This document shows, piece after piece, positions 9,001 to 44,083 of a stretch of 64,000 nt of DNA. The stretch is taken from IMG/VR virus record IMGVR_UViG_3300028833_000073, positions 64,001 to 128,000 of that record; one strand, given 5' to 3'. The position numbers and the translations under genes are program-made. The notes beneath the pieces were generated by a model. It was not told the origin of the DNA and did not search any database. It saw only the letters and a list, made by a program, of their open reading frames with translations. Within the stretch, counting starts at the first letter, position 1. Each line of letters begins with the position of its first letter. The DNA is from a virus. Taxonomy: Duplodnaviria; Caudoviricetes.

Positions 9001-11314
9001 ATCTCTCAAAGAGATATTTATGACGAATTTTACCTTTGCCTTCTTTAAAGGCTTTCTGTTCTTCTTCTATTTGCTTTTGATACCGCTCATTTCTCTTTCT
9101 TTCTTCTTCTTCAAATAATTTCTTAGGGTCTTCTTTTCTCTTGGACACAACCTCGCCAATTTGTTTTTCAATACCAGGAAGGCTACTAGCTGGGTCGCCA
9201 GGAGATGGTCCAGATGTTCCAACACCTCTAGAAATCCTACGCATTCGTTTACGTTTATCCATTATAGCTTGTTCTTCTCTAGATTTACCAAGTCCTACAC
9301 CATAGGTTCTAATAGCAATAATCTCTGCTAGAATCTCACTTAGATAATGGAAGGTATTATATCCCTTAGAGTCATAGATGTTAGAGATATCTAACTTATT
9401 CAGCATGCTCTCTGTGTTAGTAGTAACAGTACCATACTTCTTATGAATTCTCTCTATATAAGATCCATCAAATAGATTCATAAATGGAGTCATACCACGT
9501 TCTTGTAAATTCTGTATCTCTTGATCTAATTTAGTCTTATTAGAAAATACCTCGCCAGCAAGTCCCATTATTCTGCCTTTATTCTTACCAGGACCTTGTC
9601 CTGCTTGATATATAGCTTCTAGTATATCTTGTAAATCTCTACTACCATTATATCCACCAAAGCCCATATTCATAGCAGCTTCATCTATTATCTCTTGTGC
9701 TCTCTCTTTATCTCCTTGCTTAGGATTAACTGATGCTAACTTAGACATAGCAGATACTAAGTCTTGGAATTGACCTGGTTGTGCGAATACACCTTTACGG
9801 AATCTATCATAGTTTTCCCATCTCTCAAGCTCTTCTTCTCTATTGCCACGTTTAAACTCACTCATGTATTTAGTAACTATAGAATCTATATCTCTAAATG
9901 ATTGATCTACATATCTATCATATCTAGCATTCCATTGATCCTGTAAATCTTTAGTATTTACAAACTGACCTCTCTCATAGTCATAAGTACGATGGCTTCT
10001 ACCAGTCAAAGCATTCTCAATAGCAGCTAAGTACTCAGGAATAACCTTGACTAAAGCTTGTTTTGCCTCACCATCCCATGGGATGGCGCCTTTTTCATAT
10101 GCTGACGAATCTAAGCTGGATTTTACAGTATCTCTTACTCCTAACAACTTTCCTATCATGCCCATAGGAGACATTTCATCCTGACTGGCATACATATTCA
10201 TCTTTGCTAGGAAGGTACCAAAAACCCCACTCATTGTATTATCAAAGTTCTTAGCAGTCTCTTGAAGCTTAGGACCAATCATGGTACTCACTAGCATTGT
10301 CATAATTCCGCCTAGTGGATTCTGAGCAAACATCATGAGTGGGTTATCCATGCCCATAGCTTCACCCATGGAATTGATCATTCCTAATCCAAGATCATCT
10401 AGTACAGTCTTAAAGTTATTAGCGATATTCTGTCCATATTCTTCAAATCTAATCATACCTTCAGAAGTAGCTATATCTCCAAAGCGTAGTTTCTTCTTCT
10501 TATCCTTCTCTTCTTCTTCCTTATGATGTAGCTTATATTCATTACGATACATCTCTAATAGTTCTTTAAGCATAGCATTACGTTCAGAACCTAGCTTATC
10601 TTGTGATTCAAAGAATTTCTTAGCATTCTCAAAGTGAGTATTAACAGCTTCAGTACTAAACTTAAGCTGATTAGCCATAGTCTCATTAAGAGTAGAGAAA
10701 CCAGACTGAGTTACACTCATCAGTCTCTCACCCTGAGCATAAAGTAAATTAGCAGATATTCTATTGCTCTTCATTATAGCATCAGCAGAACCAATGATAG
10801 CATTACCAGTGGCTGCTGTTGATGCTTTGGATGATTCTTTAATGCTCTTAGATATAAGAGCATCACCTTCAGAGATACCAAAGTCTTCTTCACCATTCTC
10901 ATCAAGACCTAGCATCTTATCAATATCATCAGTAGATCCAGAGGATTCATCTCCTCCTAGATCAAATCCAAAGTCATCTCCTCCACCCATGTTATCCATG
11001 ATGGCATCTTCAGATGACTTGATTCTATTATGGTTATAGAATGTACCATGAGCTAAGTCATACTTAGCGTTAGATAAAGCAGCTTCTCCTGCTTGATATA
11101 TATTAGATTTAGTAATAGCATTCTTGATTCTATTTATAGTAGCTCTATAGTCTCTTACAGCAACATAAGCACTTTTAAATACTTCCTTGTTATCATCTAC
11201 AAATGAATGATATCCTGGCATCAAGTCTCCTGCAACATCATTAGATGCATAGACAGCAGACTTCATTAAATTCTTAGTATAGTTCTTTACTAGCGGCAAC
11301 GGGTTTACTCCCAT
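1..11314 (-). CDS. Giant tape-measure-like virion protein (>3,770 aa, 3' end outside the window)
   Basis: ATG at 11314 with RBS AGAAAGAGGTG and late-type promoter AACT-CCTTAT-TA upstream. N-terminus MGVNPLPLVKNYTKNLMKS; the same frame is open at the window edge (...QKEFMDLNGQLNKKTVMDNV), which explains its absence from the ORF track. Contains IPWDGEAKQALVKVIPEYLAAIE...YDYERGQF (recalled as resembling the phiKZ gp181-type N-terminus), YAxGT/AEGG motifs and Gly/Ala-rich hydrophobic stretches. Many antisense shadow ORFs on the + strand. Confidence 0.8.
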   Translation of the reverse strand, partial: MGVNPLPLVKNYTKNLMKSAVYASNDVAGDLMPGYHSFVDDNKEVFKSAYVAVRDYRATINRIKNAITKSNIYQAGEAALSNAKYDLAHGTFYNHNRIKSSEDAIMDNMGGGDDFGFDLGGDESSGSTDDIDKMLGLDENGEEDFGISEGDALISKSIKESSKASTAATGNAIIGSADAIMKSNRISANLLYAQGERLMSVTQSGFSTLNETMANQLKFSTEAVNTHFENAKKFFESQDKLGSERNAMLKELLEMYRNEYKLHHKEEEEKDKKKKLRFGDIATSEGMIRFEEYGQNIANNFKTVLDDLGLGMINSMGEAMGMDNPLMMFAQNPLGGIMTMLVSTMIGPKLQETAKNFDNTMSGVFGTFLAKMNMYASQDEMSPMGMIGKLLGVRDTVKSSLDSSAYEKGAIPWDGEAKQALVKVIPEYLAAIENALTGRSHRTYDYERGQFVNTKDLQDQWNARYDRYVDQSFRDIDSIVTKYMSEFKRGNREEELERWENYDRFRKGVFAQPGQFQDLVSAMSKLASVNPKQGDKERAQEIIDEAAMNMGFGGYNGSRDLQDILEAIYQAGQGPGKNKGRIMGLAGEVFSNKTKLDQEIQNLQERGMTPFMNLFDGSYIERIHKKYGTVTTNTESMLNKLDISNIYDSKGYNTFHYLSEILAEIIAIRTYGVGLGKSREEQAIMDKRKRMRRISRGVGTSGPSPGDPASSLPGIEKQIGEVVSKRKEDPKKLFEEEERKRNERYQKQIEEEQKAFKEGKGKIRHKYLFERYGGSADSNELMRIAENEEEYRKKAAEIYLEKWQKEQRKAEQGYEEDKTGVSKWWDEQKKDFIKRNEKTWEDIQKNGFLDTLIKAGTVSEKFGVIKTGLEQLADKPTSMLTKVLEQADEKLYDFFFLEEERVDKNGKPVEGFFGRLKWEMDDVFKRINEGLNEYLFQPLKDKLGVEGPWDAIKKGLNYIGIDIDGIIDNFKDSTKEFFGPIKDRLKEMGIDFFKDAKEALAEERRKVNEATHEGEYHPEGTTTTTETKPKTEQEKITAQLASMDQRIKDAEAKGDMLGAQELKNRKAKYEQMKKGQLVLSDQSKRSGYGDYINQLETMYANEKTIVDSKGRYVQGYTNLKYNPEYKGKGGQRISELRDKINESSRLTRESIERGKAYNITGIEIDTLVDFTSRGYGNLDEENRKMFSELKKNIDSYGSIEDREQMYQRILATGPVLSDKDRKKLSDQITFLRGEIDKLEKERLSATSDEQRTAIDTALATMKTKVQIYTNALNKALPEGIYNDFKKGLYDLIAEKARVDKEEKEKGKGTKTEEKVKSRYIGEQAQNKMLGKLHTWERITNNFEKGNFSFNIDQGLAEFVYENKDIIFDSYRPHIDKFLKDLVKIEDKNTRDDIIKDVRDRFISNDRATLEDLSSVKNLRYAINRHRKKITREFEQGKFTPEESKKKEAIIDNVQVGQSILQGYNQEKLYDEKFKDGITPLEFNRSFGIHEVEGPPFENIIGTATEQQKGFFVDLRDTLSKKLDDVIDAIKGINIETEGITGFGMAEGGTVPKTGIYALSKGEIVIPRSFDPKEQAKDAKGEQAFIDRISNSIANSINPKNIKGYAKGTGVYGDAKKRRIGDKEVEVMGNVIRILPTMANDKLSEETNKSVDELAAQVESVTGKKPKKDTMESKVVFIKDFIKDIRDNTIEANTEAGVEVGDRSISANRKGFDPIIDDLHKLGSKIRGKATKEFFTDNTITRTTLDGVNNIKSGFIDAFSTILFGDGTNKEVNKYIDETKKTIIDATPDVAAHSVVGLVGGTLLGGPLLGAIAGASIGIIKNNEFFMKELFGEKNAEGERQGGFFDKQTIEAIEHYGPSMKTMGLIGTIAGLVTPFGPLGGLMIGSGLGFLRKNEDFQTMLYGEKNKDGQRIGGIIDKDTRDFFKKAAPNMAASAIAGMFLGPFGLVGNVMMGGAVGMLGSTEAFQTHMFGPMGKDGKRHGGIVGALREGIVEPWLEFGKKVKDDLFEWVKKDVFGPLKGAFTPIAKQIQLGVVGMFSGVGKAIGRLFEVITGKPLAKTLQDYLFKPFTAISQKLISTALKPAKFILSAPSKMIGAVGDALRRRQIMMGNADYMSAAERVQFAQDKGMNIEDNQYLQLDQNLATANKGNLNDIKKILTLYRDGDEGLKRDQGQAMRNLWATVDDRIKSGDWHWFGTKGLTGEFDRDKIARLFRERKDKEAIAMVNKVLDNAQAAGQQVSTDKRKEIIKTFQDVALDLAKSEDIRNNFANEKGKMVETIKEMTGYDITEGDNLNKMIKNVEKEISVREKVEEERKEGKISEGEDAIRGSIVDQTNTLVEALNEIKTTLEITVGGGRTPEQLADLYKRRMIFKDEMDKIDRQHKTNSASILGRLESVFGDNLDISEESLQHLDTKQGMNDLEKILQMGSKGFKVDNLNDLVLWASNEALKKDDKNLFSKQYKLFTEAGYQTKDLKGLGQLSADQVQNLVNAASQGLKLTDLNEFKNVKLKDAEAMKKIMDISGLNEKYLDAKHMQRLIDDGTYGQMLMNPEYFRIDPNKLESEIARQETMEKNREGGGELDGKIKTRRMDHTYNFIMNRMATTGEGLNDIGRTGVKWIRRNVPDPRVGRPEQRRYISGDILDKLDKLGHDWMDRYRNGELSEEEVETAYNKLEEMEKAKNEGEIPTHAYGTGVINKDHLAVLSKGEKVVNINDYLKNMPRYAEGTVGNLALQPEPEVAPPANNVNEPGTRTTSTGTKLRGIEGGNKAAQTTSQEGKDRDSQKKKNEKDSDRTKINEQLAEQRTYIAKMLDSIKDNKDKIRGMLNKGKDKFKEVMSEYGIGKYVPGQGGTNIPANKETKRIEGKVEEKHDSIVNTGYYSEEIYKLLKNRLDVKKAGPEQKKKNDWFDKLMGLLGGLAAWFMKGGLLALLKKVIPKIPKIPNMLKNFASQLARLFPRIPIIGPFFTKLYDKISKVGAGITKAIRDFWDGFRGKGARVAEGAAATAKAGSRAALAYGSTKQGQDKIVRAGEWVDSKLAGWRMNRAINANGIERTDGSLNKRLASIMSEDERSFMKGLDKYKIKDTVQGLNPAEVKEIAQKLGVSTQDVLARQYEILTGSTRMDKGFDALTAEGNIKATMLAEGNKATANSKLTEILEQRLGPQLSILQEEQKLGTLRNVAKDEKAMRQILDVMEQNHGALGANQTEIAKNAAIKAELINKYPMLEGRFIQAERAYSRSIIGRGAIKVSEGVGKATEAIKTQAATAKGMVQSGLHQYRDDSKLLNTIFGKTERTALSEAELAERARVLRESGKYSEAEIEQTLKKLRYQDMGIRGKISSKLSDAASAAKTSTKNFLFGGHTYGLSPQEMNNQVLRLMQDGYTQKEAMEEVRKLSLERSRTSLGIMRDTLTQDYQRAKNFGTRIVESDAVKAASNMARSAGETVGGVAKGVGNAAGKVVNFYTAPTRALLNVGDYALQGVSKVGEAAAFGKQLLNTVDDDLATKFGKGYKVASFVPKTMAQMPLEALRGFGNTAELIRGGISGNMAKLGDMALDAGSKGSFVQGKVLEEGASIYKKAGFKVAQGTEGAFNKIFNFIMTPLQKIASLAAEVLGHIPGLKTSSLNSGFQKLAEGLAKAIEKKGGARLFASIGRKLIPYVGQALMAYDFAEAFYDGMTNPGLVLGINDQSTITETETVLAAITNAIVKTCTLGILDGRDVIDLVMDTIGPVIGYTGAGLKEKRDAAKIELDRFNMEHGTNLTQKEFMDLNGQLNKKTVMDNV

Positions 11315-12806: not shown

Positions 12807-12845
12807 AACCAAACCAAAAAATAGGCATATATTATAGTTGTGCCG
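12807..12845 (+). promoter_or_regulatory. Early-type promoter (ACCAAA...AAAATAGGCATATATTATA)
   Basis: The same motif recurs before gene clusters at about 24045, 28542, 32106, 32488 and 35454 (+) and 58470 and 60958 (-). Confidence 0.7.
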
Positions 12846-21915: not shown

Positions 21916-21993
21916 TGTGAATATCTCTGAATTCAGAGATATATTATATATGTAGTAATAGGGTACCTTGTTTAACAACAAGGAGGAATTACC

Positions 21994-22101
21994 ATGAGAT
22001 TCTTTATATATCGTCTAGCAGAAACCACCTGCAAAAACGAATGGATCTTTGACGTAATTAATCATGTAATGTTTGATTTACTTATCACTTGTTTGCGATA
22101 A
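21994..22101 (+). CDS. 35-aa peptide MRFFIYRLAETTCKNEWIFDVINHVMFDLLITCLR inside a structured early transcript
   Basis: RBS AAGGAGG; early-type promoter at about 21916-21950; transcript ends form a perfect 17-bp inverted repeat. Confidence 0.55.
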   Translation: MRFFIYRLAETTCKNEWIFDVINHVMFDLLITCLR

Positions 22102-22201
22102 GCGACATTACCTCTGATCCTCGTTGTTGTGACTTGCAATCGCTTACGGTGGTATGAATATCACTCGCAATGTCAAACTCAAGGTACCCTATTACTTTTT
22201 G

Positions 22202-31973: not shown

Positions 31974-32139
31974 TTACTATAAACGGGGGTACCTAATGGT
32001 ACCCTCAAAAAGTGTGAAAAGTTCATTTTTCAGAGATATATTATTGGTAGAATACCAATACCACCATGCATTCGGATAGAATGCAATTCCCTTTTTTAAT
32101 TTTTCTGACCAAACCCGAAAATAGGTATATATTATATAT

Positions 32140-35259: not shown

Positions 35260-35441
35260 ACAAACAATCTCCTACCAATACGGTAGGAGATTTATTTGCT
35301 AAGTTATTATGTGAGAATTATATGAAAGGAGGTAATGCACATGAAAAACCATATGCGTAATGTGAGATAATGTTAGTTACGCAAACAAGTGTAACCGAAG
35401 TGTACCCAAAGGAAAAGCTGAATTGCCCACAAGCTTACCTT
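35260..35441 (-). ncRNA. Putative late small RNA carrying the ACUUGUUUGC hairpin and an anti-RBS/anti-AUG segment
   Basis: AACA-AAATAA-TA promoter at 35452; GUUAC-ACUUGUUUGC-GUAAC hairpin (35395-35376); UUUUUCAUGUGCAUUACCUCCUUUCAU; terminator at about 35265-35295. Confidence 0.6.
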
Positions 35442-35531
35442 ATTATTTTGTTATGACCAAAAAAATATATAGACACATATTATATATGTGGTGGTATTGG
35501 GTAAAATTCTAATAGAAAGGAAGGAATAACA

Positions 35532-41098: not shown

Positions 41099-41638
41099 AT
41101 GATCTTAGTAATGAATAGTGAATTCTTCATTCAGAATATAAAGAATGATATGAAGATTATGGATAATTCATTTGTTCTTAGCTGGGATTCTCAGTTAACT
41201 CCAGAGGCAGCAGGATGTCCTATTTGGAGTAGTAGGCATCTTGTTCCTCCAGAGGGAATTAGTAATGACTATGATTATACTAATTACTTATACTTCAATG
41301 ATAAGGCTATGGAGTTAATAGCTATCATTGGGTATATGATTAAGACGAATAACATAGTTATCATTCTCTCTAATGGTAATTATGCTGAAGACTTCCTATA
41401 CATGTTCTTGAAGTTTATCCAGAACAGATATGGAATAGTGTATAGAGATGTGAAGTGTCTTGAAGATATTCCTGAAGTTCCAGGAGATACAGATAGCTTT
41501 AGCATTCAAGGACTCTATAACTTCAATGCCTATGACAATAATAGAGTTGTTAGGTATATAGAGTCACTTAAGATATCTGATCCTGACTTTAGGATGTTCT
41601 TTGAACAGAATCTGAATGAGAAAGCAGCAGAGCTATGA
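41099..41638 (+). CDS. Hypothetical protein (paralog of 40409-41089)
   Basis: LVPPE...YTNYL...NIVII...FLKFIQNRYGI. Confidence 0.75.
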   Translation: MILVMNSEFFIQNIKNDMKIMDNSFVLSWDSQLTPEAAGCPIWSSRHLVPPEGISNDYDYTNYLYFNDKAMELIAIIGYMIKTNNIVIILSNGNYAEDFLYMFLKFIQNRYGIVYRDVKCLEDIPEVPGDTDSFSIQGLYNFNAYDNNRVVRYIESLKISDPDFRMFFEQNLNEKAAEL

Positions 41639-42426
41639 AGCTATATGAGAAGGTGAATTATACTCAAGATATAGCGCTCTTAAAGAATGCTAATATCTAC
41701 GAGTATGATATTGCTAAGGCTAATATATCTGTCCTCTTAAATAGGGGACAGATATCATCTTCTCTATATGACTTTCTTTTTAATCAAGACAATATGGTTA
41801 GAAAGATCATGGTAGGTAATATGGAGAAGACTAATAAGAATCTTATTAAAGAGAAACAACAAGGTATCATTGATGCTAAGAAGTATCTCTTTGAAGCTAA
41901 TCATATAGATGATAACGAAGTTCTCTCGATAAAGAATGATGCTGTATTCGTTACAAGGGAACTAGATAAACTTGAGTATGGTAATGCTAGATTCACACTA
42001 AGGAATAGATATAATCTCTTTATTAGAATCCTAAGATTACAATTCTTCTATCTTCTAGATCAAGTGAATGATATAGAGGTATTAGATATAAAGGGTATAA
42101 GAGATGAGGTTATAGAGAAGCAAGAGGAGTATATGATTGACTTCATTAAGACTCTATTGTTTACCTTTAAGACAGAAGGATCTGATAAGACATTGCTCTT
42201 ATTAAGAACATTCAATCATAATTATATGAATAAGAAGTTAGATATCAACTACTATAGGGACTTATACACAGGTAAGTTCCCATTGAATACAGATAGTGTA
42301 GTCTTTTCATATAATGCAGATGCTCTTAGTCAAGACCTTGTAGATTCTGTCGATATAGTAAACAATGGATCATTCCTTAGAGCTATATCGAAAGTATTCT
42401 ATACTGAGTATCTTAGGCAGAAATGA
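41635..42426 (+). CDS. Small DNA-polymerase-palm-like protein
   Basis: IYEYDIAKAN (motif A-like), VLSIKNDAVFV (motif C-like) and IKGI; no exonuclease domain. Confidence 0.55.
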   Translation: MKLYEKVNYTQDIALLKNANIYEYDIAKANISVLLNRGQISSSLYDFLFNQDNMVRKIMVGNMEKTNKNLIKEKQQGIIDAKKYLFEANHIDDNEVLSIKNDAVFVTRELDKLEYGNARFTLRNRYNLFIRILRLQFFYLLDQVNDIEVLDIKGIRDEVIEKQEEYMIDFIKTLLFTFKTEGSDKTLLLLRTFNHNYMNKKLDINYYRDLYTGKFPLNTDSVVFSYNADALSQDLVDSVDIVNNGSFLRAISKVFYTEYLRQK

Positions 42427-42461
42427 GTCCTCACCATAACGGTGAGGATTTTATTTTTTGC

Positions 42462-42953
42462 ACTAAATACCTCCCATCCGAAGATGGGAATAGTATCTAG
42501 CTCAACGCAAACAAGTGTTGATTACTTTAGAAAGGATCGCTTACAGAAAAATACGTGCTGGCTACTTTTATGTTAGTACTATATCAAAGACTAAATACCT
42601 CCCATCCGAAGATGGGAGTAGTATCTAGCTCAACGCAAACAAGTGTTGATTACTTGAACATATTCCTGCCGAAAAAAATTCTTTGCATATTTTTATGTTA
42701 GCACTATATTAAAGACTAAATATCTCCCATCCAAAGATGGGAGTATATCTAGTTCTAACGCAAACAAGTGTTAGATGAACGAACCAAAGTTATGATTTCT
42801 CACCCATGAGTAATCCCCATTATATTGTTATAAAGAAATTAAAAGTTACAGGACCTCCATCCTGCAACTTTTAATTTTTGGTGTATCAGCAATGACTAAA
42901 ATAACCACAGAGAAGAACTATCATTTTCTGCTCTATAGCTATACTATAGTGTT
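42462..42953 (-). repeat. Tandem array of four promoter-sRNA-terminator units (period about 125-128 bp), three with a conserved hairpin-plus-terminator block
   Basis: Promoters AACA-N6-TR at 42574, 42699, 42829 and 42953; near-identical 66-bp blocks at 42462 and 42590 and a diverged third at about 42715; unrelated 35-45-nt segments between them. Confidence 0.8.
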
Positions 42954-43443
42954 ACCAATCTGTATCTATATCAACTTCTTTTTCTTTTTTAGCCTTTGGT
43001 TTAAAGTCCTTATGAGTAACATTCTTCTCTGAGTTAAAGTTGGCTACATATACAGTTACTAAGTAGAAGATCTTCTCTGCTAGTAATTCAGTAAAGTACT
43101 CTTCTGAATAGCATAGATATATCTTCTTCTTAAGGGTAGTTGATAGTCTATTTGATACAATATTGGTTATATCCTTACGAATAGTATCTTCTCTTTCTTT
43201 ATTGATGAAATCAAGTCCTGTATCAGGAACTATATTATACATCACATAGTCATTAAGACAGTCATCAAGAAACTCATTTATGAAATTATTCACATCTTCC
43301 TTTGAGTCTTTATATCTAAAATCAGATATAGCTCTAAACTCATCGGTCTTTGTTGCACTATCTAGAACGTCTATATATCTCTTAAGTAGATACAATGCAA
43401 CTATAGCTAGAATTACATAGATATATTCAAGCAACTTACTCAC
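42952..43443 (-). CDS. Hypothetical membrane-anchored protein
   Basis: N-terminal hydrophobic helix YIYVILAIVALYLL. Confidence 0.75.
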   Translation of the reverse strand: MSKLLEYIYVILAIVALYLLKRYIDVLDSATKTDEFRAISDFRYKDSKEDVNNFINEFLDDCLNDYVMYNIVPDTGLDFINKEREDTIRKDITNIVSNRLSTTLKKKIYLCYSEEYFTELLAEKIFYLVTVYVANFNSEKNVTHKDFKPKAKKEKEVDIDTDW

Positions 43444-43643
43444 CCCTTAATGGAGAGTAAATGTTCTTTTGCATTTTCATAATCACCATCGAATCGAGAT
43501 AGAGCAGCTTTACAAGCATCTAGATCAACACCAGTCTCTTCATTTAACTGTAGAGCTAGTACAGGATCAGCCTGTTTAGCATTAGCTCTTCCATAAGCAG
43601 CCTTTAAATTCTCTGCTTGTTGTCTTTTGAAGTCTTCAAACAC
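43440..43643 (-). CDS. EF-Ts N-terminal (UBA-like) domain mini-protein
   Basis: LQLNEETGVDLDACKAALSRFDGDYENAKEHL resembles EF-Ts VKELREKTGAGMMDCKKAL...GD.EKA...L. Confidence 0.6.
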   Translation of the reverse strand: MFEDFKRQQAENLKAAYGRANAKQADPVLALQLNEETGVDLDACKAALSRFDGDYENAKEHLLSIKG

Positions 43644-43678
43644 AATAATCTCTCCTTTGATTATTAGAAGGTGAACTT

Positions 43679-44083
43679 ATGACAAAGAAAGACTTTAGAT
43701 ACTTTGCCATAGCTAAAGAGGTATCTAAGAAATCTACTTACAATAGAGTCCATATAGGGGCTATTGTAGTAGGTAAGAATAAGATACTTGGTGAAGGAAC
43801 AAACATGGTTAAATCTCATCCTCTACAAATGAAATATAACAGACTCAATCCAGATATGAAGGAGAACTATGCACATGCAATTCATGCCGAAGTATCTGCT
43901 ATAGTTCATACAGGTACAACTAATCTAGAAGGATGTATCATATATATCTATAGAGAAGATAGAAATGGAAAGATTGCTATGTGTCGTCCTTGTATTGGTT
44001 GTATGCAGCTAATAAGAGCTGTTGGTATTAAGATTATCTATTACACTACCAATGATGGTTTCTGTAAAGAAGTTATAGGTTAG
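43679..44083 (+). CDS. Cytidine/deoxycytidylate deaminase family protein
   Basis: HAE and PCxxC zinc motifs (IHAEVSAI; CRPCIGC). Confidence 0.85.
   Translation: MTKKDFRYFAIAKEVSKKSTYNRVHIGAIVVGKNKILGEGTNMVKSHPLQMKYNRLNPDMKENYAHAIHAEVSAIVHTGTTNLEGCIIYIYREDRNGKIAMCRPCIGCMQLIRAVGIKIIYYTTNDGFCKEVIG

Follow-up and report, generated by a model that had tools for sequence, protein, structure and literature searches.

A tandem array of putative small-RNA genes sharing an invariant-loop hairpin in an uncultured AR9-like phage

The window analysed here is a 64,000-nt stretch (bases 64001-128000) of the virus record IMGVR_UViG_3300028833_000073, a 158,305-bp linear record with 34% GC, and it contains a tandem array of putative small-RNA genes on the minus strand at positions 42462-42953. 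The array fills a 525-bp gap between two convergent genes, one on the plus strand (41635..42426) and one on the minus strand (42952..43443), and the intrinsic terminator of the plus-strand gene (42425..42451, plus strand) forms the lower array boundary. Directly upstream of the array, in the same orientation, lies a gene whose 163-aa product has a membrane helix at its N terminus. Three units of ~125 nt (42462-42829) share one order, as the first-pass annotation, which was made from the sequence, had described: a promoter motif, a 5′ segment of 37-43 nt that is unlike in each unit, a hairpin with an invariant loop, which we refer to as HP1, and a terminator-like hairpin, HP2. A 66-nt block is common to all three, the constant part of the units measures 66-85 nt and the repeats are spaced by 125/128 nt. 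Promoter motifs of the form AACA-N6-TR end at 42942, 42818, 42688 and 42563, where they had been placed in that annotation, and the last three extend to TAACA-N6-TR. The unit U2 (42715..42829) comprises the promoter AACAATATAATG at 42818-42829 (predicted +1 at 42818), a 5′ segment at 42776-42818, HP1 at 42754-42775 and HP2 at 42715-42753; U3 (42590..42699) comprises a promoter at 42688-42699 (predicted +1 at 42688), a 5′ segment at 42650-42688, HP1 at 42630-42649 and HP2 at 42590-42629; and U4 (42462..42574) comprises the promoter AACATAAAAGTA at 42563-42574 (predicted +1 at 42563), a 5′ segment at 42522-42563 that includes GAUCCUUUCUAAAG, HP1 at 42502-42521 and HP2 at 42462-42501. The loop sequence ACUUGUUUGC lies at 42760-42769, 42635-42644 and 42507-42516, carried by a UCUAAC/GUUAGA stem in U2 and by UCAAC/GUUGA stems in the other two units, and the terminator-like hairpin CUCCCAUCUU(Y)GGAUGGGAG (CUCCCAUCUUYGGAUGGGAG) is present three times, against 0.02 expected by chance. 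In structure predictions HP1 and HP2 fold in every HP1 unit and the 5′ segments, which share little or no similarity between units, are largely open.

The leading unit, U1 (42836..42953, minus strand), had been described as loop-less and differently folded, and its sequence from 42836 to 42942 does lack HP1, folding instead (z -7.3) into two strong hairpins, the second of which is a 19-bp terminator-like stem. The promoter assigned to it fares less well: the AACA motif is present, but it shares bases with the stop codon of the 163-aa gene and is AATA in the closest (99%) relatives, and U1 may be the 3′ untranslated region (UTR) and terminator of that upstream gene. Coding on the plus strand was considered for the array and rejected, the similar 29-30-aa frames of U3 and U4 starting inside HP2 without a ribosome-binding site, and the frame being broken in U2 by compensating insertions and deletions which, by eye, keep the RNA stem.

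The ACUUGUUUGC 10-mer has six exact copies in the 158-kb record, and six of six lie inside stems of 5-8 bp whose sequences differ. The three copies outside the array are at window positions 35381-35390 (minus strand) and 22087-22096 (plus strand) and, beyond the window, at genome positions 154007-154016 (plus strand). The loop and stems of the hairpin as originally drawn stand, but folding gives a better drawing, namely a stem, a C-G pair, an A.C mismatch, a second C-G pair and the hexaloop UUGUUU, with HP2 as a 16-bp helix with a 2-nt bulge beginning immediately after it. Related phages were collected by searching with the flanking 263-aa protein and then among contigs encoding its relatives, and percentages given for relatives are identities of this flanking protein. 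In an alignment of 15 HP1 instances from three phages, 83.7% of cells pair, compared with 50.5% after shuffling (0/500 shuffles reach the observed value), and pairing falls to 36-39% when the partner columns are shifted by one. Five of the seven pairs occur as three to six pair types whilst the closing C-G is invariant, and one solitary hairpin shows a G-C to C-G swap between the reference and its orthologue in the relative L024 (86%). G.U pairs in the stems are found on the predicted RNA strand only, which fixes the orientation of HP1 because they would read A.C on the opposite strand. The fourth loop base may be A in relatives (ACUAGUUUGC, three cases). A covariance model, which had been proposed as a check, recovers only the known sites in 158 kb. 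HP1 is a genuine, strand-specific structured RNA motif.

Proteins near the array are ~30% identical to those of AR9, PBS1, vB_BpuM-BpSp, Staphylococcus jumbo phages, Listeria LPJP1, Fusobacterium JD-Fnp phages and Yersinia phiR1-37, and sheep and goat gut metagenome runs contain the phage DNA (24 sequencing runs with the stretch, none listed as RNA). On these grounds we assign the phage, by its sequence, to the AR9-like group as an uncultured and distant member; the group carries its own multisubunit RNA polymerases. Transcript mapping in AR9 has defined a late promoter, AACA-(6N)-TA/G, whose last base is the start site, and an early promoter, AAATATATATTAT-(6N)-G (PMC5312081). The motif ahead of the HP1 units is this late promoter motif, as had been proposed, and it lies 30-50 nt before the hairpin in five of six reference and eight of eight L024 HP1 hairpins (13/14), whilst genome-wide there are 169 sites on both strands (~0.03 per 60 nt). 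The motif, often as AACATA-N4-TA, is also found ahead of plausible late protein genes. The early promoter has 33 close matches (A[TC]ATATTAT[AT]N5) in the record, for example at window positions 12842, 14610, 35490 and 69508, and these are mostly followed by stereotyped leaders of ~40 nt. These early leaders fall into two main classes, beginning GCCG(U/A)AUAG or GGUGGUAUUGGG, share a block ...UGUUUUAGAAAGGAUG...AUG, and in many cases end with UUAGAAAGGAUG before the start codon.

The three HP1 copies outside the array belong to solitary candidate RNAs, of which those with late promoters sit antisense between plus-strand genes. S35 (35262..35452, minus strand) has a late promoter at 35441-35452, the HP1 loop at 35381-35390 on a GGUUAC/GUAACU stem and a terminator at 35262-35290. 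Its 3′ part holds a predicted-open stretch, CAUUACCUCCUUUCAU, that is complementary to Shine-Dalgarno and start-codon sequences (anti-SD/anti-AUG), and among S35 orthologues the ACCUCCUUU block is the conserved part of the 3′ region and the stem shows a compensatory change. S154, which carries the copy at genome positions 154007-154016, has a 3′ part that amounts to a ~40-nt antisense copy of one early leader, start codon included. S22 (21954..22198, plus strand) differs in having an early promoter and a length of ~240 nt, with the HP1 loop at 22087-22096 on a CUUAUC/GAUAAG stem; its predicted fold (z -7.15) has a 17-bp helix joining the two ends and HP1 at the tip of one arm. In this model S22 looks like a structured non-coding RNA and not a message, because the apparent ribosome-binding site of its 35-codon frame is buried within a helix. 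We also observed a short early-promoter RNA without HP1 at window positions 32051-32110 (plus strand) that includes CCAAUACCACCA, complementary to the GGUGGUAUUGG class of leaders, and which by its sequence is a second candidate regulator of early leaders.

Comparison with relatives revealed arrays of very different size at the same site. The reference gap of 525 bp holds three HP1 units and the loop-less U1, three 99% relatives (L029, L030 and L120) have a gap of 403 bp with two HP1 units and lack the reference U3, and L024 has a gap of 1079 bp with one loop-less unit and seven HP1 units, whilst two other contigs of the L024 cluster, recorded without DNA sequence, have gaps of ~700-720 bp that would fit ~4 units. 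Further away, the 253-bp gap of L025 and L118 (68%) contains two promoter-plus-terminator units without HP1, the 127-bp gap of L026 (58%; 10793-10919) contains one such unit, also without HP1 and including GAUCACCUUUCUAUAG, and the ~30-bp gap of L031 and L032 (59% and 51%) contains a terminator only. U3 is absent from all related strains examined, and contigs of four more runs, from four studies, are likewise short of exactly one unit (125 nt). The HP1 units of L024 are each headed by an AACATA-N4-TAG motif, their stems and HP2 hairpins are different, and their 5′ segments show no relation to any in the reference; the 5′ segments are entirely different and HP1 is kept, in line with the division into variable and constant parts drawn at the outset. 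Two more HP1 units, different again, are on a short JGI contig from the L024 cluster. In the 99% relatives, the last unit (L029:10865-10930, minus strand, also in L030 and L120) has a promoter reading AACC and a broken HP1 closing pair (C.A), and from its sequence looks like a decaying unit.

The S35 site of more distant relatives is occupied by a late-promoter RNA that contains (A)UCUCCUUU but lacks HP1, and HP1-less late-promoter small RNAs with anti-SD stretches are located at L118:3385-3545, L026:4040-4240 and L031:1460-1660 (all minus strand). The HP1-less anti-SD stretches at the array and S35 sites of distant relatives include AUCUCCUUU and GAUCACCUUUCUAUAG, the latter resembling the 3′ end of Firmicute 16S rRNA. 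Because distant relatives hold such RNAs at these sites, we consider anti-SD small RNAs to be the older occupants and HP1 to be a module of one sub-lineage, with the array turning over by whole units. The HP1-HP2 block is 98% identical between U3 and U4, yet their 5′ segments are largely dissimilar, which argues for cassette exchange or gene conversion and not for plain duplication followed by drift. Two further observations concern these contigs. The loop-less unit at L025:2905-2950 (minus strand) ends GUUCAAGUAAC-[terminator hairpin]-UGUUUGCUUG, whilst U3 (42630-42665, minus strand) reads GUUCAAGUAAUCAAC-ACUUGUUUGC-GUUG, and HP1 may have arisen from a terminator tail like that of the L025 unit. 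In the 99% relatives a TnpB (OrfB_IS605 / Cas12f1-like) gene lies ~9 kb upstream of the array (L029:1-584, L120:1-606); it is absent at the matching place in the reference and looks like an IS605-type insertion polymorphism.

Pairing potential of the variable segments was assessed with RNAduplex against 25 early start regions and 112 other start regions, with 100 shuffles. The 5′ segment of U4 has a median of -18.0 kcal/mol with early starts versus -13.6 with the others (p = 2.6e-4), and the 3′ part of S154 a median of -25.7 versus -19.9 (p = 5.9e-4), neither value being reached in any of the shuffles (0/100 in each case). The U4 segment had been singled out as complementary to a widely used ribosome-binding site, and this is borne out, as AGAAAGGAU has 19 copies in the record, of which ~11 are ribosome-binding sites, in most cases following an early promoter. 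Across the family, anti-SD 6-mers are present in 6/14 RNAs versus 1.8 expected, a count reached by 10/2000 random sets, and the anti-SD stretches are predicted to be open in U4, S35, S154 and two or three L024 RNAs. A second complementarity proposed in the first-pass annotation, between UUUCGGCA of U3 and UGCCGAAA of an early leader, had to be given up: it concerns one leader only, just 7 nt can pair because the U of UGCCGAAA is the -1 base, and a match of this length is at chance level in ~1.2 kb of leaders. For the HP1 loop itself, no partner with at least 8/10 complementary bases was found outside the hairpins in the non-coding parts of the record, and pairing of the loop (CUUGUUUGC) with the conserved 16S rRNA segment GCAAACAGG was dropped, as we estimate that about two such rRNA matches arise by chance.

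We propose, with a probability of about 0.5, that these units are a family of phage small non-coding RNAs, mostly late, which combine a shared docking hairpin with a differing pairing segment, that a subset silences early leaders, and that the other targets lie outside the available phage sequence. Each array unit would most likely be transcribed separately by the late (non-virion-type) RNA polymerase of the phage, starting at TAACA-N6-TR and stopping at the long hairpin HP2. The shared HP1, with its 5-7 bp stem of free sequence, invariant C-G, A.C mismatch, C-G and loop U(U/A)GUUU, would most likely dock one common factor, a phage or host RNA-binding protein. A fixed loop and fixed closing pair on a free stem are the signature of a hairpin read by a protein. 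In U1 snRNA hairpin II with U1A, and in lambda boxB with N, the protein reads the fixed loop and the closing C-G whilst the stem is free. We infer a protein-read hairpin for HP1 from this analogy, which is one of recognition logic, there being no sequence relation to either hairpin and no RRM protein in the record. The unstructured, unit-specific segment would then act by base pairing. In U4 and S154, and weakly in S35, the anti-SD/anti-start-codon segments match the conserved ~40-nt early leaders, and RNAs made late would shut down translation of early genes, whilst the targets of the remaining units would presumably be host or rival transcripts. Recombination between the constant parts would add and remove units as cassettes.

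Several results weigh against this proposal. U2, U3 and 5/7 of the L024 array units have no preference for early start sites in RNAduplex, and exact complements of U2, U3, U4 and all L024 units in the whole record are at shuffle level. The early-site preference of S35 is weak (p = 0.07), and pairing with any strong ribosome-binding site is likely because of the anti-SD content alone. S22, being early, large and structured, is a poor fit to the role of a late silencer. The U-tail of HP2 is weak (GUAUUUAGUCUUU only), and read-through with processing of a longer transcript is possible for that reason. Searches of the 158-kb record, which is ~64% complete, found no TnpB (PF07282), Hfq, RRM or RNase III, and no candidate to bind HP1. 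The idea of a guide or antisense family raised in the first-pass annotation is supported in part, by the conserved layout and by the predicted anti-SD pairing of U4 and S154 (weakly S35), but not as regards a target for U2, U3 and most L024 units, nor a partner protein.

An unlikely alternative is that HP1 is the active part and the array a decoy or sponge, whose copies titrate one RNA-binding protein of host or phage (for example a defence sensor, an RNase or a regulator of translation), with the variable segments serving as spacers of little function and the array length setting the dose. HP1 is indeed the sole invariant element, its copy number ranges from 2 to 7 between close relatives, it recurs in otherwise unrelated RNAs (S22, which is early, and the solitary S35 and S154), and most variable segments have no detectable target and are fully diverged between phages with an 86% identical flanking protein. 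However, a sponge would not need a promoter per copy, the 5′ segments keep within a narrow range of 30-50 nt, and the anti-SD stretches are more frequent than expected, are retained in orthologues and stay single-stranded in the predicted folds. A hypervariable 5′ segment of 30-50 nt ahead of a constant 3′ scaffold, the 98% identical scaffolds of U3 and U4 behind largely dissimilar 5′ segments, and the cassette-wise gain and loss of units would also suit guide RNAs of an RNA-guided effector, for which phage RNAs that reprogram host Cas proteins are a precedent (PMC10651486; bioRxiv 10.1101/2024.10.29.618823). HP1, perhaps together with HP2, would here be the handle of a nuclease or repressor encoded by the host or in the missing third of the genome, and the array a CRISPR-independent guide library with a promoter per unit, exchanging its cassettes and directed against early phage, host or rival nucleic acids and transcripts. 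We consider this distinctly unlikely: the 158 kb encode neither Cas nor TnpB nor a Nop-type protein, no Rfam CRISPR-repeat model matches HP1, no protospacer-like matches were found in 50,697 phage records, the HP1 stems differ between units, unlike the repeats read by Cas6-type proteins, and the same sites in distant relatives carry ordinary anti-SD small RNAs without HP1.

The position of the array, co-oriented with and directly behind the 163-aa gene, as well as the unconserved U1 promoter motif and the weak HP2 U-tails, would agree with the absence of independent small RNAs and with a long structured 3′ UTR of the 67-aa/163-aa operon, or a read-through transcript, in which HP1 and HP2 act in cis as processing, stability or termination signals. 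Yet nearly all units of the two diverged arrays, and the antisense solitary copies as well, keep a promoter motif at a fixed distance, the one promoter-mutated unit of the 99% relatives (AACC) also has the broken closing pair, and HP1 is found at only six places in the record and not at late-operon ends, making such a reading very unlikely. Highly improbable, lastly, is a DNA element, for example a set of replication-origin iterons, a hotspot of recombination or a signal in single-stranded DNA that forms a hairpin; a tandem repeat between convergent genes that is an insertion/deletion hotspot among strains might suggest one, but the stems tolerate G.U on one strand only, a site in duplex DNA gives no reason for flanking inverted repeats to covary, and the promoter and terminator signals are consistently oriented.

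A match to a known RNA family, which would have spoken for a catalogued element, was not found: a search of Rfam with 41500-44000 on both strands (E<=10) gave nothing on HP1, the best match being rnk_leader on the terminator of a neighbouring gene (32.9 bits versus a cut-off of 50) and the only CRISPR-DR match (18 bits, E 4.3) lying outside HP1. BLASTN against 50,697 phage records gave no match at E 1e-5, and at E<=10 only chance-level matches of 20-24 nt, none of them protospacer-like; one of these, a 23/24 match to Streptococcus/Lactococcus phage portal genes, covers part of HP1 and is likewise at chance level. An IMG/VR search with the flanking protein returned no relatives. Pattern scans yielded loci that we rejected: 23 loci from a 16-mer scan of IMG/VR and 73 IMG/VR loci with the promoter and loop pattern are attributable to chance, with stems no longer than the pattern imposes (scan matches score <=27 bits versus 31-37 for true members, the best, L061, being rejected), and 23 JGI loci with two loops 100-130 nt apart are unrelated tandem repeats without model matches. 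The HP1 covariance model found no instance in AR9, vB_BpuM-BpSp, vB_StaM_SA1, LPJP1 or JD-Fnp1. We therefore regard the HP1 family, on the databases and literature searched, as a new and uncatalogued RNA family, absent from both.

Neither Nop (PF01798) nor Cas proteins were detected in the 158-kb record, and no array neighbour is of the Tas type. The neighbouring genes encode a phrog_21037 protein, the 163-aa protein, a 67-aa protein and a 134-aa relative of dCMP deaminase, and give no lead to an HP1 partner; the deaminase gene, the only one in the neighbourhood restricted to HP1-carrying contigs, was considered as partner and rejected as an ordinary dCMP-deaminase relative. CheckV puts the completeness of the record at ~64% and a 296,790-bp contig encodes an identical flanking protein, therefore the true genome is probably jumbo-sized, with a third of it outside the 158-kb record.

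Bacterial small RNAs with anti-SD motifs offer the nearest functional comparison. Most copies of LhrC, a small RNA of Listeria monocytogenes, lie in tandem. LhrC1-5 are small-RNA genes of ~100 nt in a low-GC setting, each with its own promoter and terminator, whose CU-rich motifs base-pair with G-rich ribosome-binding regions and so block translation (PMC4132741); the HP1 units resemble them in having a promoter motif and a terminator-like hairpin apiece. LhrC RNAs are near-identical paralogues with a conserved pairing motif, whereas in the HP1 units the pairing part varies and a separate hairpin is constant; they are also bacterial rather than phage-encoded, and we found no sequence or Rfam match between the two. 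The streptococcal csRNAs of the CiaRH regulon carry an unpaired anti-SD and anti-AUG stretch between hairpins (PMC3091779), to which the stretches of S35 (CAUUACCUCCUUUCAU) and S154 are comparable, but this unpaired region is shared among csRNAs, which are host-encoded, have no invariant-loop hairpin and form no variable arrays. An unpaired CU-rich anti-SD motif is not common to the HP1 copies, being absent from U2, U3 and most others.

Among phage-encoded RNAs, Racrs and crRNA-like arrays are small RNAs with a hairpin handle for protein binding, to which a short variable segment may be added, and are sometimes arrayed (PMC10651486; bioRxiv 10.1101/2024.10.29.618823). Their handles are copies of a host CRISPR repeat (23-50 nt, stem sequence fixed), whereas in HP1 the stems are free and the 10-nt loop is fixed, its units each have their own promoter motif and terminator-like hairpin, and no CRISPR-repeat model matches it. 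CRISPR arrays proper have near-identical repeats of 23-50 nt; the 66-85-nt constant part and the differing HP1 stems set this array apart from them. No Nop-domain Tas protein is adjacent to the array, as it would be in TIGR-Tas systems, and the guide of TnpB omega-RNA lies 3′ of a long scaffold next to a nuclease gene, whereas the variable part of HP1 units is 5′ of the scaffold and no TnpB is adjacent. TROVE (PF05731) and RtcB (PF01139), by which a Ro60/Y-RNA system would be recognised, are both absent from the 158-kb record. For small RNAs of the Hfq type, marked by a U-rich 3′ end after the terminator, the observations are an HP2 tail of only GUAUUUAGUCUUU and no Hfq gene in the phage record. 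Small RNAs have been mapped in the jumbo phages 201phi2-1 and phiKZ (PMC11512511), which resemble our putative units as short non-coding units in giant phages with their own multisubunit RNA polymerases, but differ in being single 5′-UTR-derived or intergenic RNAs with no shared module and no arrays.

Charting of small RNAs in virulent and giant phages has scarcely begun, and the HP1 family is structurally well supported. Its design is unusual in joining a constant hairpin module to a variable, presumed pairing region, with between 2 and 7 units in phages that are otherwise near-alike. Early shut-off by antisense RNA would serve a purpose comparable to that of T4 RegB by different means. If HP1 recruits a protein, the family would provide a natural scaffold for programmable RNA targeting, and if its anti-SD members silence early leaders, they would constitute an RNA-based early-to-late switch in phages with their own RNA polymerases.

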